64,000 nucleotides of DNA, taken from positions 57,401 to 121,400 of the forward strand of contig JBFMFO010000003.1 in assembly GCA_040754095.1 (NCBI GenBank), given 5' to 3'. Source of the stretch: Thermodesulfobacteriota bacterium. GTDB lineage: Bacteria; Desulfobacterota; QYQD01. Under the pieces are notes generated by a model that was given only the letters and a program-made list of their open reading frames with translations, did not search any database and was not told the DNA's origin. The position numbers and the translations under genes were made by a program. Each line of letters starts with the position of its first letter. Position 1 is the stretch's first letter. Shown here piece after piece: positions 5,561 to 20,878 of the stretch.

Positions 5561-5665
5561 CTGAAGACACCTTTCTCCAGCAGACCGGAAGTCCGTAGTT
5601 TTTCGCTTATATACTACTTTTCGGACATTGTTACAATTAAGTTAACATAATGTTTTGTGCAGCTT

Positions 5666-5735
5666 CGTAGGGTGGGCTAAGCCCACCAAAACTACTACGC
5701 CGCCAATGATGGTGGGCTAAGCCCACCCTACGGCT
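5666..5735. repeat. Paired palindromic repeats GTAGGGTGGGCTAAGCCCACC ... GGTGGGCTAAGCCCACCCTAC
   Basis: Each half is a perfect hairpin. Related copies lie at 6254-6282, 6412-6436 and 24819-24888. Confidence 0.75.
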
Positions 5736-5749
5736 ACGGCACTATAAAT

Positions 5750-5830
5750 CCGAATATCGAAATCCGAAACAAATCCGAAATCAAAATGCTCAAATGACCA
5801 AAACATAATTGTTTGTAACACGTTAGCTGT
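5750..5830. repeat. Solo terminal inverted repeat of the ~300 bp MITE family (aatccgaaa...caaatgaccaaaa)
   Basis: Matches the reverse complement of the 3' terminus of the MITE copies at 16790-17125 and 18750-19085. Confidence 0.6.
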
Positions 5831-5867
5831 TTGAAAAGAGCTGGTCGTCCAGAAAACGGCGCCTCGA

Positions 5868-5935
5868 AAATCCCCCTTAATCCCCCTTTTTCAAAGGGGG
5901 AATGTAGGGGGCCCCCCCTGTCAGCGGTAATCTGA
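5868..5935. repeat. G5/C5-run palindromic element (cccccttaatccccctttttcaaagggggaatgtagggggcccccc)
   Basis: Hairpin-forming. An inverted partner copy lies at 6121-6210, with flanking ctgtcagcggt / accgctgacag. Confidence 0.7.
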
Positions 5936-6120
5936 ATATGCATCAGATCTGGCAACATGAAAATGCCGGTCTTCTTCCCAAAATGCTCAATCAATACTGT
6001 TCTTCTCTTCTTCGTATTCTTGTAAGTATTTGAGTTCACAGGGTTCACATGCACCATGCAAGCATACTCTATGCCACAAAAGTGCTGCATTTTCAAATTG
6101 CCCGTTTTCTTACGTTTTCA

Positions 6121-6210
6121 CGGGACCGCTGACAGGGCCCCCTTTTTCAAAGGGGGGAAATGTTTCTCCTCCCTTTGGAAAAGGGAGGTTGGGAGGGATT
6201 TTAAAATACT
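6121..6210. repeat. G5/C5-run palindromic elements (two adjacent copies)
   Basis: gggccccctttttcaaaggggggaaatg and ctcctccctttggaaaagggaggttgggaggg. Confidence 0.7.
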
Positions 6211-6253
6211 TCTTCAAATAGCTAAGCTGATACAATTGGTTAAAATTTAGCCA

Positions 6254-6336
6254 TGTAGGGTGGGCAAAGCCCACCCTACGGGACTTAAATCCCCCTCACC
6301 CCCCCTTTGGAAAAGGGGGGGTGAGGGGGATTTGGC
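6254..6336. repeat. GTAGGGTGGGCAAAGCCCACCCTAC palindrome followed by a G5/C5 palindrome (aaatccccctcaccccccctttggaaaagggggggtgagggggattt)
   Basis: Both are perfect inverted repeats read directly from the sequence. Confidence 0.8.
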
Positions 6337-6411
6337 AAGTTTATATGTTTAATTGCCGGAGTAATAGTAGGATAGTCCCGCACGATGGGTTTTACCCGCT
6401 ATCCTTCTCTC

Positions 6412-6436
6412 GGTGGGCAAAGCCCACCCTACGTGA
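6412..6436. repeat. GGTGGGCAAAGCCCACCCTAC palindrome copy
   Basis: Same core as 5666-5735 and 6254-6282. Confidence 0.7.
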
Positions 6437-6626
6437 CTACCCATCATTCCATTATTCCACCATCCATTTATCTATAGGTATTCAAAGAGCCAAGATGTTA
6501 CTTTCGACCAACATGCACAACAAGAAGTCGTATTATTCGTTTTTTTCTTAATGTTTTTTTGGGTGTGCCGATAAGGAAGGAACGAAGGCGTATCGCAAAT
6601 CATACTCTTCAAGAGGAGGTAAGAAG

Positions 6627-8624
6627 ATGAACCTGTTTAAACGAGAAGAAAACAAGGCAAAGGATTATGAGAGTGAGTTACAGGAGGCCCGGGCGCAGGC
6701 CAGGCGCTGTGAAAGTATCTTATCTGCTATAGCCGCACCCATGTTTGTGACCGATAAAGACCTGGTGATTACCTCTATAAATGACGCCGCGCTGAAGGCC
6801 ATGGGCTACAGTCGGGATGAGGTAGTGGGGAAGATGACCTGTGCCCAGTTTTCCAAGACCCCGCTCTGCGGCACGGCCCAGTGCACGATTAAGAACTGCA
6901 TGCGCACCGGCGACGTAATCAACGGTGAGACGGTGGCCGAGACCAGGGACGGAAGGAAGGTGCCCATCCAGGCGGCCTGTTCGGCCCTCTTTGACGAGCA
7001 GGGAAAGCCCTACGGCGGCATGGAGGTCATCCTAGACCGGACCGAGGCAGTCAAGGCCAAGTGGGAGGTAGATAATATCCTCAAATCCGCCGCCGCGCCC
7101 ATGTTTGTGACCGATAAAGACCTGGTGATCACCTCCATCAATGATGTGGCGTTAAAGGCCATGGGCTACAGTCGGGATGAGGTGGTGGGGAAGATGACCT
7201 GCGCCCAGTTTGCCAGGACTCCCCTCTGCGGCACGGCCCAGTGCACGATAAAGAACTGCATGCGCACCGGCGACGTAATCAACGGTGAGACGGTGGCCGA
7301 GACCAGGGACGGCAGAAAGGTGCCCATCCAGGCGGCCTGTTCGGCCCTCTTTGACGAGCAGGGAAAGCCCTACGGCGGCATGGAGGTCATCATAGACATA
7401 ACAGAGGTCAAACGCCTCCAGAAAGAGGCCGATGAACAACGTGAATACCTGGAAAGACAGGTGGCCATGCTGGTAAAAGAATTACATACCCTGAGCCTCG
7501 GAGACCTGTCGGTAAACATTGTCGCGGAAAGACAGGATGAGATCGCCAGGGTCATAGAAAGTTTAAATAAGGTTATTGAAAGTCTCCGGGAGACCGCCCG
7601 GGTAGCGGAAGCTGTTGCCCGGGGAGACCTGACCGTAGAAATCACACTCAAGTCAGAAAAGGATGTCCTTGGAAATGCCTTTAAGAAAATGATTAACGAC
7701 TTGCGGAATATCGTCGGCAATATAAAAGAGGCGTCCGACAATGTGGCCTCCGGCAGTCAGCAAACCAGCAGTACGGCCGCGCAACTCTCACAGGGTTCTA
7801 CCGAACAGGCGTCCAGTATTGAAGAGGTGTCCAGCTCCATGGAGGAGATGAACAGTACGGTAAATCAGAATGCCGACAATGCCAGGCAGACCACCTCCAT
7901 TGCCGAGAAGGCCGCCGGCAATGCCCAGGAAAGCGGCAAGGCCGTGGCGGAGGCGGTAGGGGCCATGAAACAGATCGCGGAAAAAATATCCATCATTGAA
8001 GAAATCGCCCGCCAGACCAATCTGTTAGCCTTAAATGCGGCCATCGAGGCGGCCCGGGCCGGGGAACATGGGCGGGGGTTTGCGGTGGTGGCGGCCGAGG
8101 TGCGCAAGCTGGCCGAGCGCAGCCAGACCGCAGCCCAGGAGATCGCCAATCTATCGGGGAGCAGTGTTCAGGTGGCCGAACATGCCGGCGCTCTGGTGGC
8201 CGAACTGGTTCCCAATATCCAGAAGACCGCCGAGCTGGTTCAGGAGATAAATGCCTCCAGCACCGAGCAGGCCAGCGGTATCCGGCAGGTGACTCAGTCT
8301 ATTCAACAGCTCGACCAGGTGGTGCAGCAGAATGCCAGCGCTGCCGAAGAGATGTCCGCAACCGCCGAGGAACTTACGTCCCAGGCCGAGCGGCTGCGCG
8401 AGTCCGTTAATTTCTTCAAGCTGGATGACCAGGGTGGTCAGGGGATGAAACAATCGGGAGCCGGGCGTAGTCCCCGTGCCGACATCCCTAAACTGTCTGC
8501 CCACAAACCGGCGCGCCCCGGCGCATCTGCGAGCGGCAGTGTGACTAAGCCGCAGATAACAACCGGGGTTGATATAGTCCTGGGTAAGAATGATATGGAC
8601 GACCGGGAGTTTGAAAGAATTTAA
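6627..8624 (+). CDS. Cytoplasmic methyl-accepting chemotaxis protein with two tandem Cys-rich PAS-like modules, HAMP and MCP signalling domain
   Basis: Strong RBS AGAGGAGG. No TM segments. Two 120-aa repeats each carry [23 protein letters not shown]. The MCP tip motif is [37 protein letters not shown]. The C-terminal tail ends REFERI. Confidence 0.9.
6727..7410 (+). repeat. Tandem direct duplication (two 360-bp copies, about 95% nucleotide identity) inside the MCP gene
   Basis: 6727-7050 versus 7087-7410. The 3' halves are almost base-for-base identical. Confidence 0.85.
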
Positions 8625-8761: not shown

Positions 8762-10687
8762 TTGAAGGCTAAAAGCTCAAGAGGTTTTTCTCCATTGGAT
8801 GAGCAGCGGGATATAACAAAGGAACTGGATGAATGTCAGAGGCATCTGACGCAGTTATGTGCCGACATTGAGCCGGAATTTTTGCAGCTTGGCCGGGAGC
8901 TTGAGTCTGTTTTTCACCGGGCCCAGGATCTTTCAGAACAGGCCAGGGGGGCAGTCTATCTGCACGCTACGGCGCATCTTCGAGAAGAGGAACCGGCCCC
9001 CGCCTCAGGCGGACATCTCCGAAAGGTTATAGACCTGTTTCTGGATGTGAGGGATATTTTTAATACGTCACTTGATGCCCTGCGTACCACGATTGAGGAG
9101 TCTGCAAAGGCTGTCAGGCATATTTTCAATATAGGGAAAGAACTGGAAAGCCTGAAGAGCGGGCAAAATGCCCTGGAGAGGCTGGCCGTTATAACCAGAA
9201 TACTGGGTATTTCTACCCGCATCGAGTGCGGCCGTCTTGGAGATATGGGCAGCGGGTTTATTTTTTTATCGGATCAAATAAGTAATTTTTCCGGTGCGCT
9301 TTCCAAGTATGCATCTGACTTTGAGACCGAGGTAAAACAGGTATTGGCAAATATTGAGGAGGCAGAGACATCCGTGGCTGCCCGTCTGAAAATCCAACGT
9401 AAAGAATCTGATCGGATTTCACAACAAATTATGGGTGTTTTAGATATGGTAGATATGGCATCCGCACAGATGACCCGGCTTTCCGAACAGATTGATCACT
9501 TTTCCGAAAGGATACTCCGGGAGGTCGGAGAGATTGTATCCGCCTTGCAGTTTCAGGATATAACCAGGCAGCAGGTTGAACACGTACAGGAGACCCTGAC
9601 AGAGATAGGATGCTCTCTGGACGGGAAAAATCTGAAAAAATGTACATCAGAAGAACTGAGCATTGTTTATAGGAACTTAGCTGTACAGCTTTCACAACTT
9701 CGTAACGTGAGAAGCGAAATTACTACCGCCGGCCAAAACATAATGACTGCCCTTGAAGAGATCGGCCGGGAAATCGAAGGACATGTAAGGCATGTCGCCG
9801 CGGCCATAGGTGAGACGAGCGGGGGCAAGGGTGATAATGCACTGGCTATGCTTGAGCCCCAGATGGAGGCGCTGGGACAGCAACTGAAAAATAGTTTTTT
9901 GCTCAGCGAGGTATTGTTTAAGACCATCGGTAATGTGTCAGGCCTGGTAGAGCGGATCGGAAGCAATCAAGCCAAAATCAATAAGACACGCCTGGATATG
10001 AAGATCCTGGCCCTTAATGCCCAAGTACAGGCGGCAAGACTGGGAGGGGATGGACGCGCACTTTCTGTACTGGCTGAAGATATGCAGCATCTTTCGGATT
10101 CCTGGAGTGCGGTGGCCGAAGAGACGGCCTCCCTACTCCAGAATGCCGTTAATGTGGCGGCCGACCTGAAAGACAAACTGGAAGATGTATTGGAACATTG
10201 CCGGAGCCAGACCGCAAAAAGCCAGGAACGGGCCTCTAATGCCGTGCTTCTCCTGCAGACTGCCAGCGACAAGACAGGGAGCGCCGTTGAGTCCATTAAT
10301 CAAGCCAGTCGTTCATTGGGAGAGGATGTTACGGCGTTAGGGAAGACCATAAAATTCCCTCAACTTGCTGAAAGCGGCCTGGAAAGGACTATATCGCACT
10401 TAGAACATCTGCAGGATGAAATCGGCAAGAGATTATCACCGGAGGAGAGACGGCTTATTAACGGGGCATCGACGCTGGATAGAACAGCCGAACGCTATAC
10501 CATGGAGAGTGAACGCAGGATGCACACTCATGCCCTGCAGCAACTTAAACCGGTCGCAGATGCGCCGGGGTGTACTGATGTCCATGCTGTCGAACGTCAC
10601 GCCTCGGCGCGTGTTCCACTTGAAAAGGATGCGCAGATAAAAGCGACAGGCACAGATGACATGGGAGACAATGTGGAGTTGTTTTAA
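8762..10687 (+). CDS. MCP-like cytoplasmic protein with two signalling-tip-like motifs (divergent chemoreceptor)
   Basis: 641-aa ORF, probably with a TTG start. Canonical tip motif ILALNAQVQAARLGGDGRALSVLAEDMQHLSDS at about residue 415. Degenerate tip-like motif ITRILGISTRIECGRLGDMGSGFIFLSDQISNFS at about residue 130. No HAMP, no TM. Confidence 0.6.
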   Translation: MKAKSSRGFSPLDEQRDITKELDECQRHLTQLCADIEPEFLQLGRELESVFHRAQDLSEQARGAVYLHATAHLREEEPAPASGGHLRKVIDLFLDVRDIFNTSLDALRTTIEESAKAVRHIFNIGKELESLKSGQNALERLAVITRILGISTRIECGRLGDMGSGFIFLSDQISNFSGALSKYASDFETEVKQVLANIEEAETSVAARLKIQRKESDRISQQIMGVLDMVDMASAQMTRLSEQIDHFSERILREVGEIVSALQFQDITRQQVEHVQETLTEIGCSLDGKNLKKCTSEELSIVYRNLAVQLSQLRNVRSEITTAGQNIMTALEEIGREIEGHVRHVAAAIGETSGGKGDNALAMLEPQMEALGQQLKNSFLLSEVLFKTIGNVSGLVERIGSNQAKINKTRLDMKILALNAQVQAARLGGDGRALSVLAEDMQHLSDSWSAVAEETASLLQNAVNVAADLKDKLEDVLEHCRSQTAKSQERASNAVLLLQTASDKTGSAVESINQASRSLGEDVTALGKTIKFPQLAESGLERTISHLEHLQDEIGKRLSPEERRLINGASTLDRTAERYTMESERRMHTHALQQLKPVADAPGCTDVHAVERHASARVPLEKDAQIKATGTDDMGDNVELF

Positions 10688-10689
10688 AA

Positions 10690-10850
10690 ATAGCTGTCAG
10701 CTATCAGCAGTCAGCGGTCAGCATGAAGTCGGTCCACCGTTCACTGTTGACCGTTTACCGAAAGAAAATGTCGGACAACGGTTAACGGATAACAGATAAC
10801 AAACATGCTGATAGCTGAACGCTGATAGCTAAAATGGGGAGGGATCAACA
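10690..10850. repeat. Mosaic intergenic repeat, reverse-complement copy of 19840-19990
   Basis: ctgtcagctatcagcagtcagcggtcagcatg ... ccgtttaccgaaagaaaatgtcggacaacggttaacggataac ... gctgatagctgaacgctgatagc. Near-identical inverted copy at 19840-19990. Related copy at 38560-38680. Confidence 0.75.
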
Positions 10851-11188
10851 TGGCTTGCATGCTTAGCGACGTTGACGGAAAGCCGGTGTTAAAGCTGACG
10901 GGTGCAGTCGGTATCGCCGAAGGCGCGGAATTAAAAGGGGCCCTGCTGAGGCTTATTGAATCTACAGAAAATCCTACGGTAGCCATGGATGGAGTTACAG
11001 AGGTCGATGTCTGCACTTTGCAACTTCTATTTGCAACTCAAAAGAGCGCCGCCAAAGCCGGTAAGTCGCTTAATTTGGCGGACATCCCCGAGCCGTTTAA
11101 TCAGGCAGCAGAATTGGCAGGAATGGCTGACCTCTTTGGGCTTAAAATTCGAAATCCGAAGCACGAAATTCGAGACAATACCAAATGA
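10850..11188 (+). CDS. STAS-domain protein (anti-sigma-factor-antagonist-like) in the che cluster
   Basis: RBS GGGGAGGG. Reads KLTGAVGIAEGAELKGALLRL ... VDVCTLQLLFATQKSAAKAGKSL, a STAS/SpoIIAA-like fold signature. The 3' end and stop codon lie inside a MITE terminal repeat, so the C-terminus is uncertain. Confidence 0.65.
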   Translation: MACMLSDVDGKPVLKLTGAVGIAEGAELKGALLRLIESTENPTVAMDGVTEVDVCTLQLLFATQKSAAKAGKSLNLADIPEPFNQAAELAGMADLFGLKIRNPKHEIRDNTK

Positions 11189-11496: not shown

Positions 11497-11862
11497 ATGG
11501 CTAAGACAATTATGACCGCCGACGATTCAGCCAGCGTCCGGCAGATGGTAAGTTTCACCCTTAAACAGGCCGGTTACGAGGTCATCGAAGCGGCGGACGG
11601 TAAAGATGCCCTGACCAAGTTGAACGGCACGCAGATAGACATGCTGATTACCGACCTCAATATGCCCAACCTGGATGGGATCAGCCTGATCAAGGGTGTG
11701 CGCGGGATGCCTAACCATAAGTTCATCCCGATCATTATGCTGACTACAGAGTCTCAGGAGAGCAAGAAGGCTGAAGGCAGAACAGCCGGGGCCTCCGGAT
11801 GGATCGTTAAGCCGTTTAAGCCGGATCAGCTCCTGGCGGTGGTTAAAAAAGTATTAAGATAA
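11497..11862 (+). CDS. cheY: Chemotaxis response regulator CheY
   Basis: 121-aa single REC domain (ADDSASVR ... DMLITDLNMPNLDGISLI ... KPF). Confidence 0.9.
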   Translation: MAKTIMTADDSASVRQMVSFTLKQAGYEVIEAADGKDALTKLNGTQIDMLITDLNMPNLDGISLIKGVRGMPNHKFIPIIMLTTESQESKKAEGRTAGASGWIVKPFKPDQLLAVVKKVLR

Positions 11863-12107: not shown

Positions 12108-12425
12108 ATGAAAAACTTCTTCGTTTATATCCTTTGCAGTAAACGGAATGGCACTTTGTATACCGGCGTGACGTCGAACTTAATCAAACGGGTATATGAA
12201 CATAAGAGTGATTTAGTTGATGGGTTTACAAAGAAATATAATGTCCACTGTCTGGTTTGGTATGAAATGCATGAGACAGCTGAGGCAGCTATTACCAGAG
12301 AGAAACAAATAAAGAAATGGAATCGCAAGTGGAAACTAAAACTTATCGAGGAGTATAACCCTGAATGGGATGATTTATATAAAGCTCTTTGTGAAGAGAC
12401 TGGATTCCCGTTTTCACGGGAATGA
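12108..12425 (+). CDS. GIY-YIG nuclease superfamily protein (small UPF0213/YhbQ-like)
   Basis: 105 aa. Reads FFVYILCSKRNGTLYTGVTSNLIKRVYEH ... with a conserved downstream E (YEMHETAEAAITREKQIKKWNRKWK). The final codons and the stop lie inside a second hairpin. Confidence 0.75.
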   Translation: MKNFFVYILCSKRNGTLYTGVTSNLIKRVYEHKSDLVDGFTKKYNVHCLVWYEMHETAEAAITREKQIKKWNRKWKLKLIEEYNPEWDDLYKALCEETGFPFSRE

Positions 12426-12511: not shown

Positions 12512-14638
12512 ATGGAGGTATTAGCCGTGAACCCCGAAGATAAACACGCCCAGACCTATTTGGAAGAAGCCAGGGAGCTGCTGGCCGAACTGGAAGAGGC
12601 CGTGCTTGAGTTGGAAAACAACATGTCCGACATGGAGCTTGTGAACCGTATTTTTCGAGCCATGCATACAATTAAAGGTTCCGGGGCCATGTTCGGTTTT
12701 GACGCCGTGGCCGGGTTTACCCACCACGTGGAGACCGTCCTGGATCAGGCGCGAAACGGCGTCATCCCGGTTACGAATGACCTCACCGGCCTGATTCTGG
12801 CGGCGCGGGATGAGATCTCATCCATGCTGTTCGGCGCATCTGAGGCGGATTCGGGCGGCCGTGAGGAAATTATCGCCGCATTGCGTTCGCTTTTACCCGG
12901 AGAGGCAAATGAGGGAGAGGCGACAGGCCCAGAGACGAACGAGGCAGTCCCTGATTCGGGGGCCGAAGTTCAACCGGAAAGCAGCAGGGGCATGAGAGCT
13001 ACATACCGTATCCGTTTTATTCCTGGAAGCGATACGCTTCGCTATGGGAACGACCCTATCGCCTTGCTTAACGAACTGGACAACCTCGGAGAGCTGCGGG
13101 TCACCGCTCTTTCCGATCGCATCCCCTGCCTGGAAGAAATCAATTATGATGATTGTTATCTCGGATGGGACGTGACTCTTATATCTGAGGCCGATATCAA
13201 CGCGATCCGCGATGTCTTTATATTTGTGGAAGACAGCAGTGAGGTGACCATTGAAAAGATAGCAAATGCGAATACGATTGGCGATGCGGCAACTGAAAAG
13301 ATTGGTCAGATACTGGTTGCTCGTGGAGATGTCCCTGCCGAAGCGGTGGAAAGGGCCGCAAAGGATCAAAAAAAGATCGGGGAGATACTGGTCGAGACCG
13401 GTACGGTGTCTAAGGAAAAGGTTAATTCAGCCCTGGTCGAACAGCATATTATCCGGCAGCAGGCGGAAAAGCATAGCGCCAGCAGCATCCGCGTGGCCGC
13501 CGAAAAGCTTGACCAGCTCATTAATATAGTGGGTGAGTTGGTCACTACGCAGGCCCAACTCACTCAAGCGGCCGGTTCTAACGGGAACTCGGAACTGCTG
13601 ACGGCTGTAGAGAGTGTCGAGCGTCTTACCGGCGAACTGCGCGATTGTGTCCTGGGAGTGCGTATGCTGCCCATTGGCTCCACTTTTGCCAAGTTTAAAA
13701 GATTGGTGCGCGACCTTTCCGTGGCGCTGGGCAAGGAAGTTGATTTTATCACAGAGGGAGACGAGACAGAACTCGATAAAACGGTTATCGAGAAGATCGG
13801 CGATCCCCTGGTTCATCTTATCCGGAATAGCTTAGACCACGGTATTGAGACCCCGGAGAAAAGAGAGGCCACCGGCAAGCCGCGTCGCGGCATAATTCGT
13901 TTGACGGCGGCGCACGCCGGAGGAGAGGTGGTTATATCGGTTGAGGACGACGGCAAGGGGCTTGATACGGAGGCCATCGTCCGTAAGGCCATGGAAAAAG
14001 GGCTGATCGATGACGCGAAGAGCCTCTCCGATTCCCAGATATTTAATCTCATTTTCCAGCCGGGGTTTTCCACCGCTGAAACGGTCACAGATGTCTCAGG
14101 CCGCGGGGTAGGCATGGACGTGGTAAGACGGGAGATAGAGGCCCTGCGGGGTTCGTTTGATATTCAGAGTAAAAAGGGGCGAGGCACCACGGTTACGGTC
14201 AGACTGCCCCTGACCCTGGCCATAATCGACGGCCTCCTGGTGGAGTCAGGCCGGGAGCGGTTTGTGATTCCGCTGCATCATGTGCAGGAGTGTGTGGAAT
14301 TGACCGGGCGTGATATTGATAATACCCACGGACGCCATGTGATGAATGTCCGGGACAGGCTTGTTCCTTATGTCCGCTTAAGTGAATTCTTTGTTACGGC
14401 GGATAGAGAAGCGCTATCTATAGAACAGGTCATCGTGGTGCAGGCCGAGGATTTCGTTACAGGCCTGGTTGTGGACAGGATTGTGGGTGAGAAGCAGGCG
14501 GTGATTAAACCTCTGGGCAAGATGTTCAGGCAAGCCGACGGCGTATCCGGGGCTACTATACTGGGTGACGGCACGGTGGCCTTGATTTTGGACGTACCCC
14601 AGATCACACGGTGCGCACAGCGTGAGGAGGCGGCATGA
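12512..14638 (+). CDS. cheA: Chemotaxis histidine kinase CheA
   Basis: HPt motif RAMHTIKGSGAMFGF. HATPase motifs (HLIRNSLDHGIE, VEDDGKGLD, GRGVGMDVV). C-terminal CheW-like domain. The start may instead be the GTG at 12527 (RBS GGAGG). Confidence 0.9.
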   Translation: MEVLAVNPEDKHAQTYLEEARELLAELEEAVLELENNMSDMELVNRIFRAMHTIKGSGAMFGFDAVAGFTHHVETVLDQARNGVIPVTNDLTGLILAARDEISSMLFGASEADSGGREEIIAALRSLLPGEANEGEATGPETNEAVPDSGAEVQPESSRGMRATYRIRFIPGSDTLRYGNDPIALLNELDNLGELRVTALSDRIPCLEEINYDDCYLGWDVTLISEADINAIRDVFIFVEDSSEVTIEKIANANTIGDAATEKIGQILVARGDVPAEAVERAAKDQKKIGEILVETGTVSKEKVNSALVEQHIIRQQAEKHSASSIRVAAEKLDQLINIVGELVTTQAQLTQAAGSNGNSELLTAVESVERLTGELRDCVLGVRMLPIGSTFAKFKRLVRDLSVALGKEVDFITEGDETELDKTVIEKIGDPLVHLIRNSLDHGIETPEKREATGKPRRGIIRLTAAHAGGEVVISVEDDGKGLDTEAIVRKAMEKGLIDDAKSLSDSQIFNLIFQPGFSTAETVTDVSGRGVGMDVVRREIEALRGSFDIQSKKGRGTTVTVRLPLTLAIIDGLLVESGRERFVIPLHHVQECVELTGRDIDNTHGRHVMNVRDRLVPYVRLSEFFVTADREALSIEQVIVVQAEDFVTGLVVDRIVGEKQAVIKPLGKMFRQADGVSGATILGDGTVALILDVPQITRCAQREEAA

Positions 14639-14803: not shown

Positions 14804-16618
14804 ATGAAAGTCAGGATAGGTACAAAACTGGCCGTTGGTTTTGTCATCCCCTTGCTTTCTATGCTGATCATCGGGGGATGGGCCTATTTTGCCAATCGGG
14901 ATGTAGAATCAAGGTCGAGCTTGACAAAGGACGAGAGCATCGTCTTTCACGAGACCGCCCAGCAGATGAAGGTGGACGTTATACAGGTACAACAGTGGCT
15001 ATCGGATATCTCGGCCACGCGGGCGCAGGACGGCCTGAATGATGGTTTTGATAAGGCAGAGGAGCACAGACGATCTTTTTTGGCCGGGCTGAATAAGTTC
15101 AGGGAGATGTTCACCGAGGAAAACAACCAGGAGGGATTGGAACACCTGAAGAAATTGGAAGCAGAATTTAACGCATATCATGCCACCGGGAAAAAGATGG
15201 CCCAGGCTTACATAGAGCACGGGCCGGCCGGCGGAAACAAGCTGATGGCCGAGTTTGATGAGGCAGCAGAGGCCCTGTGGCGCAATCTCAATCCATTGGT
15301 GGAATCACAGACCAAAGAAGTGCATGAGAGTATGGAGGCCATTGTTACCTCGATCAAACGTGTCAATATGGGCGTTATCGTCATCTTGTCTTTAGCCGTT
15401 TTAATAACTGCTGTTGTAGGCATACTTATCGCTCGTCGTATTGTCAGACCAGTCAACCAGCTTCGTGACGTTGCTGATAAACTGGCGGCAGGAGATACCT
15501 CGGTAGAAATCGATATCAAGAGCCGGGATGAGACCGGCGACCTGGCCGCATCATTTAAGAAGATGGTGGCGCAACTGAACGGCCTGCTTGCCGAGATAGA
15601 CCTGCTCACCAGGTCTGCGGTGGAAGGAAAACTCGATACCCGCGGCGATACCGGGAAATTTGGCGGTGATTATGGAAAGATTATCCACGGCATAAACGAT
15701 ACCCTCGATGCTGTAACCGGCCCTCTGAAGACTTCAGCCGAATACGTCCGGCAGATCAGCAGAGGCGACCTCCCGGCAAAGCTTACAGACGACTACAAAG
15801 GCGATTTTAACGAGATCAAGAACAGCCTGAACAGCATGATCGATAATCTTACCGGTTTTGCCGTCAATGTACGGACAGTGGCCGGGCAGGTGGCTGCAGG
15901 CAGCGAGGAGCTTAATGCTGCTGCCACGCAGATGTCCCAGGGCACGTCCGAACAGGCGGCAAGCATCGAGGAGGTATCCAGTTCCATGGAGGAGATGAAT
16001 GCCGCAGTAGTGCAGAATGCGGATAACGCCAAGCAGACGGCGGTTATTGCAAAAGATGCGGCTCAAAATGCCAGGGAGAGTGGTGATGCAGTGGTGCAGG
16101 CGGTAGGGGCCATGAACCAGATCGCGGAAAAAATAACTATTATTGAAGAGATTGCCAGACAGACCAACCTCCTGGCCTTGAATGCGGCCATTGAGGCGGC
16201 CCGGGCCGGAGAGCATGGACGGGGCTTTGCGGTGGTGGCGGCAGAGGTGCGGAAGCTGGCCGAACGCAGCCAGACTGCGGCCCAGGAGATTGCCGATTTA
16301 TCGGGGAGCAGCGTCGAGGTGGCCGAAAGTGCCGGCCGTATGGTAGCTGAACTGGTTCCCAATATACAGAAGACCGCCGATCTCGTTCAGGAGATCAGCG
16401 CTTCCAGCGGAGAGCAGGCCCGGGGGATAGAACAGGTCACCCAGGCCATTGAACAGCTTAATCAGGTGGTGCAGCAGAATACCGGTAGCGCAGAGGAGGT
16501 GGCCATTCCTCCGAAGAGCTTTCCGCTCAGGCAGAACAATTGCTTAATGCGGCAGAGTTTTTCAAGACTGGCGAGGGCGCCCGGCAGACAGCGGCGCATG
16601 CCGGGATCAGGCGCGTAA
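14804..16618 (+). CDS. Transmembrane methyl-accepting chemotaxis protein (2 TM, periplasmic helical sensor, tandem HAMP, MCP domain) with an apparent frameshift at the 3' end
   Basis: RBS AAGGAGG. TM1 [18 protein letters not shown]2 [23 protein letters not shown] tip motif [37 protein letters not shown]. After about 16510 the reading frame yields nonsense ([15 protein letters not shown]), while the -1 frame continues as a normal MCP tail to the DFERF terminus at 16797. Confidence 0.8.
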
Positions 16619-17149: not shown

Positions 17150-18757
17150 ATGAAAGTATCAGTAGGACCAAAGCTTATCGGGGCGTTTGTTTTTCTTGTA
17201 ATCGCCCTGGGTGTGGTCAGCTACACCGGCATCAGGCAGATGGAGGCCATAGACGGGCATCTGATGAACATCTCGGATGTTATTATGAAGCGCGCCATCG
17301 TAGCTAAAGAACTACAACTGCATCTTGCCAATACCGGCTGGGGGGTTATGGAGTTCCTGACCGCGGAGACTACGGCCGAGCGGGATGAGTTGGCCGGCAC
17401 AATCAAGAAGGAGATGGCCGAGGTCAGCGAGCATATGGGCGAGTTGGACGGGATTGCCTCTGCCGAGGTCAAGACACATCTGGCAGAATTTCGTAATTCC
17501 TTTGGTGCGGTGGAAAAGATTATTAACCAGATATTAACCCAGGGCCGGGGCGGCATAAACAAAGAAGTCCAGATGCTCGATACCCAGTTGGATGCGGTTA
17601 TTGATAAAACCATAGCCGGGACAGAGAAGATCGTGGCCGTGGTGGACAGGGAGGTGGAGGCGGCCAAGCTGGCGTCGGATAAAGACGTGGAGTATGGCCG
17701 GAACCTGCTGATGGCAGTGGCCGGGGCAGCCCTGGTGGTGGCCGTGATTATAAACATCTTTATCATTCTCGGCATAAGAAGCTTCAGGCGGACGGCATTG
17801 AGCATAGGGGAAGCGGTAGAAAACGTGGCAGCGGGCGCGGAACAGCTTTCCGCTACGGCCCAGGGGCTTTCACAGGGGGCCACAGAACAGGCGGCGAGCA
17901 TCGAGGAGGTATCCAGCTCCATGGAGGAGATGAATGCGTCTATCTCACAGAATGCGGACAGCGCCGGCCAGACTGCGGCTATGGCTACCAAGGCGGCCGG
18001 CAACGCCAGCGAAGGCGGTCAGGCGGTGACCCAGGCGGTCGGCGCCATGAAGCAGATTGCCGAGAAGACGAGCGTAATCGAAGAGATCTCTCGCCAGACC
18101 AATTTACTGGCCCTGAATGCCGCTATCGAGGCGGCCCGGGCCGGTGAACATGGAAAGGGCTTTGCAGTGGTCGCTTCCGAGGTGAGGAAGCTGGCGGAAC
18201 GGAGCCAGATCGCGGCCCAGGAGATTGCCAACCTTTTAGGCGGCAGCCTCCAGGTGGCCGAACATGCCGGCAAGCTGGTGGAAGAGTTGGTCCCCGCTAT
18301 CCAGAAGACCTCTGAACTTGTTCAGGAGATCAATGCGGCCAGCCGGGAGCAGGCCAGCGGTATCGGCCAGGTCACCCAGGCCATCCAGCAGCTCGACCAG
18401 GTGGTGCAGGCAAACGCAGCCGCCTCTGAAGAACTGGCCTCCACCAGTGAAGAGACGTCCTCGCAGGTGGTTGAGATGCAGCGTAACGTGGATATGTTTA
18501 TCGAGCGGCTGGGAGGACGAAAGAGAGTCAATAAGAAGAACTCGGCGCGAAAAACGAACTCCGGGAACTTCATCGGCCTTACCGGCAAGCTCAAGGGAAA
18601 ACCCAGTACAGAATCGGTTAAGGACTTAACCGTCGCCTCGGTCGTAGATGCGCCGGGGCGTGCGGAAGGGGGCCAGACGGCCGCGAGGAGCCAGGATGCT
18701 GTAGGTGTTATTCTTGATCTGGATAAGCAGAACGACCAGAATTTCGAAAGATTTTGA
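17150..18757 (+). CDS. Transmembrane methyl-accepting chemotaxis protein (2 TM, ~150-aa periplasmic domain, MCP signalling domain, no clear HAMP)
   Basis: RBS AAGGAGG. TM1 [17 protein letters not shown]2 [27 protein letters not shown] tip motif [38 protein letters not shown]-terminal tail NDQNFERF. Confidence 0.9.
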
Positions 18758-19135: not shown

Positions 19136-19672
19136 ATGGACGAGATCAGGCAGTACCTTACCTTTGTTTTGAACAGAGAAGATTTTGCCCTGGAGACCTC
19201 GAGGGTAAAAGAGGTGCTGGAGTACACAACCGTTACCCGGATACCGCGCATGCCGGATTTTCTCTGCGGCGTGATAAACTTAAGGGGCAACGTAGTCCCG
19301 GTTATGGATATGCGGTTAAAACTGGGGATGCCGGCGGCAGAGCGAACCGTCGATACCTGTATTGTGATTGTAGAAGTGGAGCTTGATGGGGAGACAGTCA
19401 CGATAGGATGTCTTGTGGATTCAGTCAAAGAAGTCCTGGAGATACCAGCCGGTGAGATCGAACCGGCGCCCAAGATGGGGATGCGCCTCAGGGCTGACTT
19501 TATCCAGGGCATGGCCAGGCAGAACGAAGGCTTTATTATCATTCTGGATATCAACCGCATCCTTTCCATCGATGAAATAACGCTCATGTCCGCCGCCGCC
19601 GGACCGGCGATTGAGACGGATGTAGCCGTTCAAAAGACATCTGGTGATGTCCAGGCAATGTCATTGACTTAA
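19136..19672 (+). CDS. cheW: Chemotaxis coupling protein CheW
   Basis: RBS AAGGAG. CheW-like domain (YLTFVLNREDFALETSRVKEVLE ... GVINLRGNVVPVMDMR ... IVIVEV). About 20-aa C-terminal extension. Confidence 0.9.
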   Translation: MDEIRQYLTFVLNREDFALETSRVKEVLEYTTVTRIPRMPDFLCGVINLRGNVVPVMDMRLKLGMPAAERTVDTCIVIVEVELDGETVTIGCLVDSVKEVLEIPAGEIEPAPKMGMRLRADFIQGMARQNEGFIIILDINRILSIDEITLMSAAAGPAIETDVAVQKTSGDVQAMSLT

Positions 19673-19996: not shown

Positions 19997-20878
19997 ATGG
20001 CGGACATAAGCCCCGGCTTAAATACGAATATCCCCATTTTTAATCCCCCTGACATGTCTGACCAGGAGTTTGCCCTGTTCAGCGATCTTGTCTATCGCCA
20101 TGCCGGGATAACCCTTCCCCCTGCTAAAAGGAACATGCTTGTTTCACGGCTGCTAAAACGCCTCAGGGCCCTTGGGATGCGTTCTTTTTTAGATTATTAC
20201 AATTACATAACCAGCCCGGCGGGCCGTCAGGCCGAATTCCCACATACTATCGATATGGTCAGCACTAACAAGACCGAGTTTTTCCGGGAGGCAGGCCATT
20301 TTAAGTTCTTAAAAGAGGCGGTCTTGCCGGAGTTGGCGGCCCGGGTACGCCGTCAGGGTAAGGGGAAAATCACGGCCTGGAGCGCAGGTTGTTCCTCGGG
20401 AGAAGAACCTTATACCTTAACTATGGTCATGATAGAGTATCTTAAGGTTTGTGGGGGCGGTGAGTTTTCTATCCTGGCTACGGATATATCACATCGCATG
20501 TTGGATAAAGGCCGGCGCGCAGTTTATTCAGAGGTCGATATCCAGAGTGTCCCCCCTGATTACCTTCGGAAATATTTCATGCGAGGAATAAAGGGACAGG
20601 AAGGTTATTATCGTGTGGCGCCGGAGTTGCGTAACCGCGTGAAATTTCAGCATTATAATTTTATGGACGACTCCGTCCCTTTCCACGGGTCTATGGATTT
20701 TATCTTTTGCCGCAATGTCATGATATATTTCGACCAGGGGACCAGAACCATGTTGGTCAAGAAGTTTTATAAGCATCTCGTTGACGGAGGGTATCTGTTC
20801 ATCGGCCACTCGGAGACCCTGCACGGGATGGAAACGGATTTTAAACTGGCCAGCCCCACGGTTTACAGGAAGATGTAA
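19997..20878 (+). CDS. cheR: Chemotaxis protein methyltransferase CheR
   Basis: N-terminal helical domain (FALFSDLVYRHAGITL). SAM-binding motif (AWSAGCSSGEEPYTLTM). About 293 aa. Confidence 0.9.
   Translation: MADISPGLNTNIPIFNPPDMSDQEFALFSDLVYRHAGITLPPAKRNMLVSRLLKRLRALGMRSFLDYYNYITSPAGRQAEFPHTIDMVSTNKTEFFREAGHFKFLKEAVLPELAARVRRQGKGKITAWSAGCSSGEEPYTLTMVMIEYLKVCGGGEFSILATDISHRMLDKGRRAVYSEVDIQSVPPDYLRKYFMRGIKGQEGYYRVAPELRNRVKFQHYNFMDDSVPFHGSMDFIFCRNVMIYFDQGTRTMLVKKFYKHLVDGGYLFIGHSETLHGMETDFKLASPTVYRKM

Follow-up and report, generated by a model that had tools for sequence, protein, structure and literature searches.

The window analysed here is a 64,000-nucleotide (nt) stretch of DNA from a Thermodesulfobacteriota bacterium (GenBank assembly GCA_040754095.1, contig JBFMFO010000003.1, positions 57,401 to 121,400), and our subject is a gene in it for a methyl-accepting chemotaxis protein (MCP) that carries two cysteine-rich PAS modules in tandem. 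With moderate confidence, we read the product as a cytoplasmic chemoreceptor in which an old tandem pair of PAS modules has had its cores gene-converted, and in which each module would ligate an iron-sulfur (Fe-S) cluster for redox or oxygen taxis. The Cys-rich PAS module itself is real, widespread and very conserved, and apparently uncharacterised. The elements of the gene are as follows, with amino acids (aa) counted from the start of the protein.

6627–8624, plus strand: soluble methyl-accepting chemotaxis protein, 665 aa, PAS-PAS-HAMP-MCP (open reading frame and Pfam)
6699–7064, plus strand: Cys-rich PAS module 1, aa 25–146
7059–7424, plus strand: Cys-rich PAS module 2, aa 145–266, 120 aa downstream of module 1 (Pfam PAS_9 at 158–260)
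6840–6899, plus strand: motif C-x8-C-x4-C-x4-C of module 1, Cys72/81/86/91 (regular expression on the translation)
7200–7259, plus strand: motif C-x8-C-x4-C-x4-C of module 2, Cys192/201/206/211 (regular expression on the translation)
6978–6980, plus strand: fifth cysteine of module 1, Cys118 (AACSALF), in strand H-beta
7338–7340, plus strand: fifth cysteine of module 2, the counterpart Cys238
6864–7031, plus strand: gene-conversion tract, module 1 copy (3 differences in 168 nt from 7224–7391; the two window copies grouped at 97% bootstrap)
7224–7391, plus strand: gene-conversion tract, module 2 copy
7470–7592, plus strand: HAMP domain, aa 282–322 (Pfam PF00672)
7896–8378, plus strand: MCP signalling domain, aa 424–584 (Pfam PF00015, 126 bits)

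The two modules form a direct repeat (6732–7031 and 7092–7391) of 300 nt with 94% identity and a spacing of 360 nt, or 120 codons. No third copy was found in the window by blastn, and Tandem Repeats Finder reported no repeat for the array, probably because it consists of just two copies. An earlier note, made from the letters of the sequence, had described two 360-bp copies (6727–7050 and 7087–7410) of about 95% identity; the repeat is there, with copies over these coordinates of 324 nt and 90.7% identity (30 differing sites). The near-perfect 3' end, which the same note had put at about 190 bp, is indeed nearly identical and measures 168 nt (the tracts above). The cysteine motif had been miscounted as C-x9-C-x4-C-x5-C: a regular expression with x9 and x5 matched nothing, and the true spacing is C-x8-C-x4-C-x4-C, spanning aa 72–91 and 192–211 and beginning CAQF[S/A][K/R]. 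The fifth cysteine, in AACSALF, was found as described, at aa 118 and 238.

The 342-nt modules of the window were compared at the DNA level with those of six homologue loci (L001–L006). At the module edges (nt 1–24 and 325–342), all first modules were split from all second modules with 100% bootstrap. The 3' segment of the core (nt 157–324) clustered by genome, at 97% bootstrap in the window, 98% in L001, 92% in L002 and 96% in L005, and the 5' segment (nt 25–156) did so at 98% in L001, 100% in L002 and 93% in L005, and at only 3% in the window. Since the edges group by position and the cores by genome, we interpret the repeat as an old tandem pair homogenised by intragenic gene conversion. 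In the window, the identity of the two modules is a mosaic, rising from 81% in the 5' part to 96% in the 3' part, and the converted portion is module nt 157–324 only. Within the 3' part (nt 136–324), 11 informative sites in the comparison of the window with L002 group the copies by genome and 0 by position. L003, L004 and L006 have 84–88% within-gene identity in the same part and gave no sign of conversion. Thus, paralogous segments group by genome, flanks by position, and the tracts are mosaic, the pattern of concerted evolution. By these sequence comparisons, the duplication is old, and its cores have been homogenised repeatedly by intragenic gene conversion, independently in several lineages and over lineage-specific tracts. 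The suggestion in the earlier note of ongoing gene conversion fits with this grouping of cores (92–100%) and edges (100%). Donor and recipient could not be told apart by identities to unconverted paralogues. As a separate observation, the metagenome-assembled genome (MAG) GCA_040755415.1 carries two paralogous two-module Cys-PAS MCPs, L002, whose core is fully converted (97% in the 3' part), and L004, whose core is not (84%).

The other suggestion, that one PAS module was duplicated in tandem very recently in the lineage of the window, has in its favour the 94% nucleotide identity across 300 nt, and is refuted by the comparison of modules between proteins, which leaves it a very slim chance. 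Module 1 of the window is 89% identical in aa to module 2 but 96%, 94% and 93% identical to the first modules of the homologous proteins P0007, P0003 and P0018, respectively, and module 2 is 98% and 96% identical to the second modules of P0003 and P0007, respectively. The two modules therefore have separate orthologues, in genomes whose proteins are only 73–96% identical to the window protein, as the 100% split of the edges also indicates. The same-position module of another protein was the nearest neighbour for 186 of the 205 modules of two-module proteins. The mosaic of 81% and 96% identity likewise argues against a recent copy, as does the spread across phyla of an architecture of at least two modules with an exact 120-aa spacing. 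An assembly artefact, by repeat collapse or chimeric joining, is the least probable explanation of the near-identity. The related sequences do derive from metagenome assemblies, but the independent assemblies GCA_028715605.1, GCA_040755415.1 and ERZ24908725 each contain the two-module gene with a converted tract of their own. Moreover, the longest stretches of exact identity within the tract measure 62 and 75 nt, with distinct flanks, and an assembler may swap paths but cannot render two copies alike.

The pair resembles known concerted evolution of intragenic tandem repeats in that the cores of one genome resemble each other more than they resemble their orthologues, flanks are orthologous and the limits are lineage-specific; it differs in that whole sensor domains of a signalling protein are involved, instead of repeats of surface or structural proteins. 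The result is a clean case of concerted evolution of whole sensor domains within one gene, and near-identical domain repeats are not safely read as recent duplications.

A protein search returned thousands of relatives, of which the best 120 were analysed, all of them MCPs of 566–1042 aa. The four-Cys motif was invariant in all 258 modules of 121 proteins, with 1–5 copies per protein and adjacent pairs always 120 aa apart. Median module identity was 66% between proteins and 68% within proteins. In alignment A2, 12 columns were invariant (G36, C48, T54, C57, C62, C67, T78, A92, C94, G106, G107 and E109, in module numbering), and no conserved His or Trp was found among its invariant or nearly invariant columns. 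A genome scan with one genome per species gave 141 confirmed matching stretches. The best 80 of these (78 distinct loci) were kept, all from MAGs and 56–97% identical to the window module. Their hosts are Thermodesulfobacteriota, Nitrospirota, Planctomycetota, Zixibacteria, Ignavibacteria, Fibrobacterota, Poribacteria, a spirochaete and two Thermoplasmatales bins, with relatives in other phyla still 56–68% identical. The motif was carried by 76 of the 78 loci, again in 1–5 copies and with all adjacent pairs 120 aa apart. An MCP domain was present in 67 of 77 motif-bearing open reading frames, and the remaining 10 were truncated at contig ends or by frameshifts.

When 1.84 billion representatives were searched with a profile, 266 proteins reached E ≤ 1e-30. 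All four cysteines were retained in 56 of the 59 domains with scores of 150 bits or more, and domains at 60–80 bits mostly kept the first three, with Ala at the fourth position. In this wider three-Cys clan Ala, Ser or Val takes the place of the fourth Cys, no new Cys or His compensates for it, and Ala or Gly replaces the fifth; Glu109 is 91% conserved in both the four-Cys and the three-Cys groups. Eight of nine sampled relatives were MCPs (soluble, or transmembrane CHASE3- or dCache-MCPs) and one was a hybrid histidine kinase. Taken together, the two groups define a family core C-x8-C-x4-C, with the window module in a four-to-five-Cys subfamily. Judged by the sequences recovered, this subfamily occurs almost only in chemoreceptors and in anaerobe-rich lineages. 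The spacing C-x8-C-x4-C(-x4-C) at a 120-aa period can serve as a recognition rule for the family.

One homologue belongs to a named isolate, Geotalea uraniireducens (GURASL_13820, P0053). The two short contigs from Thermoplasmatales MAGs, L078 and L083, carry three and two Cys-PAS modules at 120-aa spacing, and the presence of Cys-PAS on archaeal-binned contigs could reflect horizontal transfer or mis-binning. The giant poly-PAS proteins P0121 (4799 aa, 31 stretches), P0133 (3417 aa) and P0146 (3100 aa) stood at the top of the representative search and were set aside as lacking the strict four-Cys motif; with 15–31 PAS-like stretches each, their score arises from many generic PAS repeats.

The module that the earlier note had called PAS-like is a genuine PAS domain by Pfam, by its model and by structural matches. 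In Pfam, PAS_9 reached 102.7 bits (cutoff 27; E = 1.5e-29), PAS_4 97.3 and PAS 87.9, each over two stretches (aa ~29–128 and ~153–263), next to MCPsignal (1.6e-36) and HAMP (3.3e-07). The AlphaFold2 model of the module has a confident PAS fold (predicted local distance difference test, pLDDT, 95.9) with a five-stranded antiparallel sheet flanked by helices, and it matched solved PAS domains, the nearest being flavin and heme PAS domains. In module numbering, C48 starts helix 48–52, C57 lies in a loop, C62 and C67 are at or in helix 63–70, and C94 is in strand 87–98. In terms of PAS elements, Cys72 opens E-alpha, Cys81 lies in the E-F loop, Cys86 at the start of F-alpha, Cys91 inside F-alpha and Cys118 in the middle of strand H-beta. 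The position of the proximal heme-His of FixL falls between Cys81 and Cys86, at Ala84 (phmmer alignment). Based on the model and this alignment, the cysteines lie around the usual cofactor site of PAS domains, and the four motif cysteines are on the pocket side that carries the cofactor in LOV, FixL and NifL. A sequence search of the PDB returned generic PAS matches only (best FixL, E = 0.05) and no solved relative.

The output half of the protein is that of a soluble chemoreceptor. An MCP signalling domain is present and no transmembrane helix was predicted in the 665-aa protein, the highest 19-residue Kyte-Doolittle mean being 1.31, as the earlier note had read it. An NCBIfam scan gave generic models only. 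The C-terminus of the window protein is EFERI (aa 661–665, 8607–8621). Homologues end in a conserved tail, D-x-[DE]-F-E-[KR]-[FY], and the window protein ends in Ile, not Phe or Tyr; the tail resembles NWETF, the pentapeptide of Escherichia coli receptors that tethers CheR and CheB, with Phe replacing Trp.

From sequence and by analogy, Fe-S binding by the modules is likely. Each module would ligate a cluster, most likely [4Fe-4S], with the first three cysteines as core ligands and Cys91/211 or the invariant Glu as the fourth. Oxidation or loss of the cluster, or ligand exchange, in response to oxygen, redox potential, nitric oxide or sulfide would change the conformation of the PAS module. 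HAMP would relay this change to the signalling tip and so alter the activity of CheA, and the cell, an anaerobe, would leave oxidising surroundings by redox taxis or anaerotaxis (negative aerotaxis). Four considerations favour Fe-S. First, three invariant cysteines with a dispensable fourth are the pattern of site-differentiated clusters. Second, the PAS domain of OrpR binds a redox-sensitive [4Fe-4S] cluster through three cysteines. Third, NreB shows that an Fe-S cluster for oxygen or sulfide sensing can be housed in a PAS domain. Fourth, the hosts belong to anaerobe-rich lineages.

By analogy, the [4Fe-4S] PAS domain of OrpR (DVU2106) from Desulfovibrio vulgaris is the closest precedent. Its cluster is held by C52, C61 and C65 (C-x8-C-x3-C), and a conserved nearby carboxylate was proposed as a possible fourth ligand (PMC8359166). 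OrpR and the window module are both cytoplasmic PAS domains of Thermodesulfobacteriota anaerobes with three conserved cysteines starting C-x8-C, a conserved carboxylate and a redox-sensing role, the latter being proposed for the window module. Compared by published motif, the window module shares the first spacing (x8), has x4 where OrpR has x3 in the second, and carries four to five cysteines instead of three; the wider clan keeps the first three. OrpR also differs in having a single PAS domain and a sigma54-activator output, whereas the output of the window protein is HAMP-MCP, with no sigma54 activator. The PAS domain of NreB binds [4Fe-4S] in Staphylococcus and [2Fe-2S], as a sulfide sensor, in Bacillus licheniformis, with the motif C-x2-C-x11-C(-x2-C) (PMC13478379). 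The likeness to NreB is a PAS-bound Fe-S cluster held by cysteines for oxygen or sulfide sensing, which in the window module is predicted only; the differences are the histidine-kinase output and the Firmicutes hosts of NreB. Its motif C-x2-C-x11-C-x2-C is absent from the window modules, in agreement with the earlier remark that the spacing differs, and NreB gave no standout match to the module in the PDB sequence search or the structural search.

Several points weigh against our interpretation. No cofactor has been observed, and the AlphaFold2 models contain no ligand. The motif is identical to no characterised Fe-S PAS motif (NreB C-x2-C-x11-C-x2-C, OrpR C-x8-C-x3-C), and four cysteines would suit a zinc ion or a pair of disulfides equally well. 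Because the sequences used to seed the profile and pattern searches contained the cysteines, those searches are biased to motif-bearing matches, and the restriction to anaerobes is inferred from MAG names, not physiology. As for the gene conversion, different genomes also share much of their synonymous sequence in the 3' half (~70–85% identical codons), so that constraint or codon bias accounts for some of the similarity.

A serious rival has the cysteines build a Zn(Cys)4 site or a thiol/disulfide (or persulfide/polysulfide) switch in place of an Fe-S cluster, so that oxidants or reactive sulfur species would be detected through Cys chemistry, as happens in Zn-thiolate switches and with the disulfides of the ArcB PAS domain, or else hold a zinc ion with a purely structural role; we consider this unlikely, though deserving of attention. 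Metal-binding and Cys-switch PAS domains exist (zinc in WalK, disulfides in the ArcB PAS domain), which counts for this rival, as do the four to five invariant cysteines in one pocket, the many sulfur-cycling hosts (including Desulfo- taxa and Dissulfurispiraceae) and the lack of motif identity with any proven Fe-S PAS domain. On the other hand, the motif is without CxxC pairs, and the uncompensated exchange of the fourth Cys for Ala, Ser or Val in the wider clan is unusual for a tetrahedral structural zinc. For a disulfide switch, loss of the fourth Cys leaves an odd number for paired disulfides, and a zinc site would leave the restriction to anaerobe-rich lineages unexplained.

A weaker rival, and in our estimate a distinctly improbable one, is that the receptor senses an organic ligand or cofactor (flavin, Cys-bound heme or a metabolite), with the cysteines either lining its pocket or serving a structural role. 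The closest folds are indeed flavin and heme PAS domains, and in our own sequence comparison Cys72 lies within one residue of the LOV adduct cysteine (G-x-N-C-R-F-L-Q region). Against this, the domain has no invariant His or Trp, so the His signature of FixL and DosP and the Trp signature of Aer and NifL are missing; the LOV flavin-binding residues are absent; and a single organic ligand needs no three to five invariant cysteines. Based on the signature residues of heme and flavin adenine dinucleotide/flavin mononucleotide (FAD/FMN) PAS domains (PMC10468136), both classes were rejected as assignments: there is no conserved F-alpha proximal His for a heme PAS of the FixL/DosP/Aer2 type, with the FixL His aligned to Ala84, and no invariant Trp or His for an FAD/FMN PAS of the Aer, NifL or LOV type, with one of three FMN residues matched (Cys72, offset by one).

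Among known taxis receptors, those of the Aer2/Aer/AerC type share with the window protein a soluble PAS-(HAMP)-MCP layout feeding CheA. The NCBIfam Aer2 model aligned over aa 18–618 at 240 bits (cutoff 1200), and the Aer PAS domain was among the fold neighbours of the module. Those receptors differ in using heme (His) or FAD (Trp/Asn/His) residues that are absent from the window modules. DcrA and DcrH of Desulfovibrio vulgaris and GSU0582 and GSU0935 of Geobacter are likewise MCPs of anaerobes, thought to sense oxygen or redox state in negative aerotaxis, but they rely on c-type heme (in a periplasmic PAS-like domain) or a hemerythrin di-iron site, and none has a Cys-rich cytoplasmic PAS domain.

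No description of the family turned up in open-access papers and preprints searched for the motif string and for Fe-S chemoreceptors, and none is given in a comparative paper on Geobacter che genes or in a classification paper on PAS domains (PMC10468136). A review of aerotaxis from July 2026 lists heme, FAD and hemerythrin receptors, does not mention an Fe-S receptor, and states that the mechanism of negative aerotaxis remains unclear. Oxygen avoidance by strict anaerobes is poorly understood, and an Fe-S cluster in these modules would represent a new cofactor class for taxis receptors and would extend the small set of Fe-S PAS domains (NreB, AirS, OrpR) to a large family. Tentatively, we propose that the modules mark an undescribed class of Fe-S-PAS chemoreceptors, widespread in uncultured anaerobes of several phyla and present in two Thermoplasmatales-labelled MAGs. 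Such receptors might be the main device by which their hosts avoid oxygen or oxidising conditions (or sense sulfide or nitric oxide), with 1–5 gene-converted tandem modules tuning sensitivity.

The PAS-MCP gene heads a che cluster, the downstream genes of which are listed here.

8762–10687, plus strand: sensor-less MCP-like protein, 641 aa (Pfam MCPsignal 1.9e-13 only)
10850–11188, plus strand: STAS-domain protein (Pfam STAS_2 1.1e-10; syntenic in L001 and L002)
11497–11862, plus strand: CheY-like single-domain response regulator (Pfam Response_reg 1.5e-26)
12512–14638, plus strand: CheA histidine kinase (Pfam Hpt, H-kinase_dim, HATPase_c and CheW)
14804–16618 and 17150–18757, plus strand: two 4HB-type MCP genes (Pfam 4HB_MCP_1, HAMP and MCPsignal)
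19136–19672, plus strand: CheW (Pfam)
19997–20878, plus strand: CheR (Pfam)

Hence, cheY, cheA, cheW and cheR all lie downstream in the window, and L001 has the same neighbourhood. CheW or a che cluster adjoins the homologues in L001 and L003–L006, and none was present on the short contig of L002. The sensor-less MCP-like gene also follows the PAS-MCP gene in L001, L002 and L003, with a CheW gene intervening in L003, and its product may assist the PAS receptor as partner or scaffold. A 105-aa GIY-YIG protein (12108–12425) is encoded between cheY and cheA in the window, and the syntenic slot of L001 (13330–13713) holds a 127-aa protein of the 23S_rRNA_IVP family, which indicates that different small genes fill the same slot of the che operon.

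Upstream of the MCP gene lies a non-coding region of 1 kb (5561–6626). A search of this region against Rfam gave sub-threshold hairpin matches only. It contains a 34-nt direct repeat (6168–6201 and 6300–6333) and four copies of the palindrome CCCTTTG[GA]AAAAGGG, at 5884 and 6140 on the minus strand and at 6171 and 6303 on the plus strand, where 0.34 would be expected by chance. These could be elements resembling repetitive extragenic palindromes (REP-like) or regulatory hairpins.

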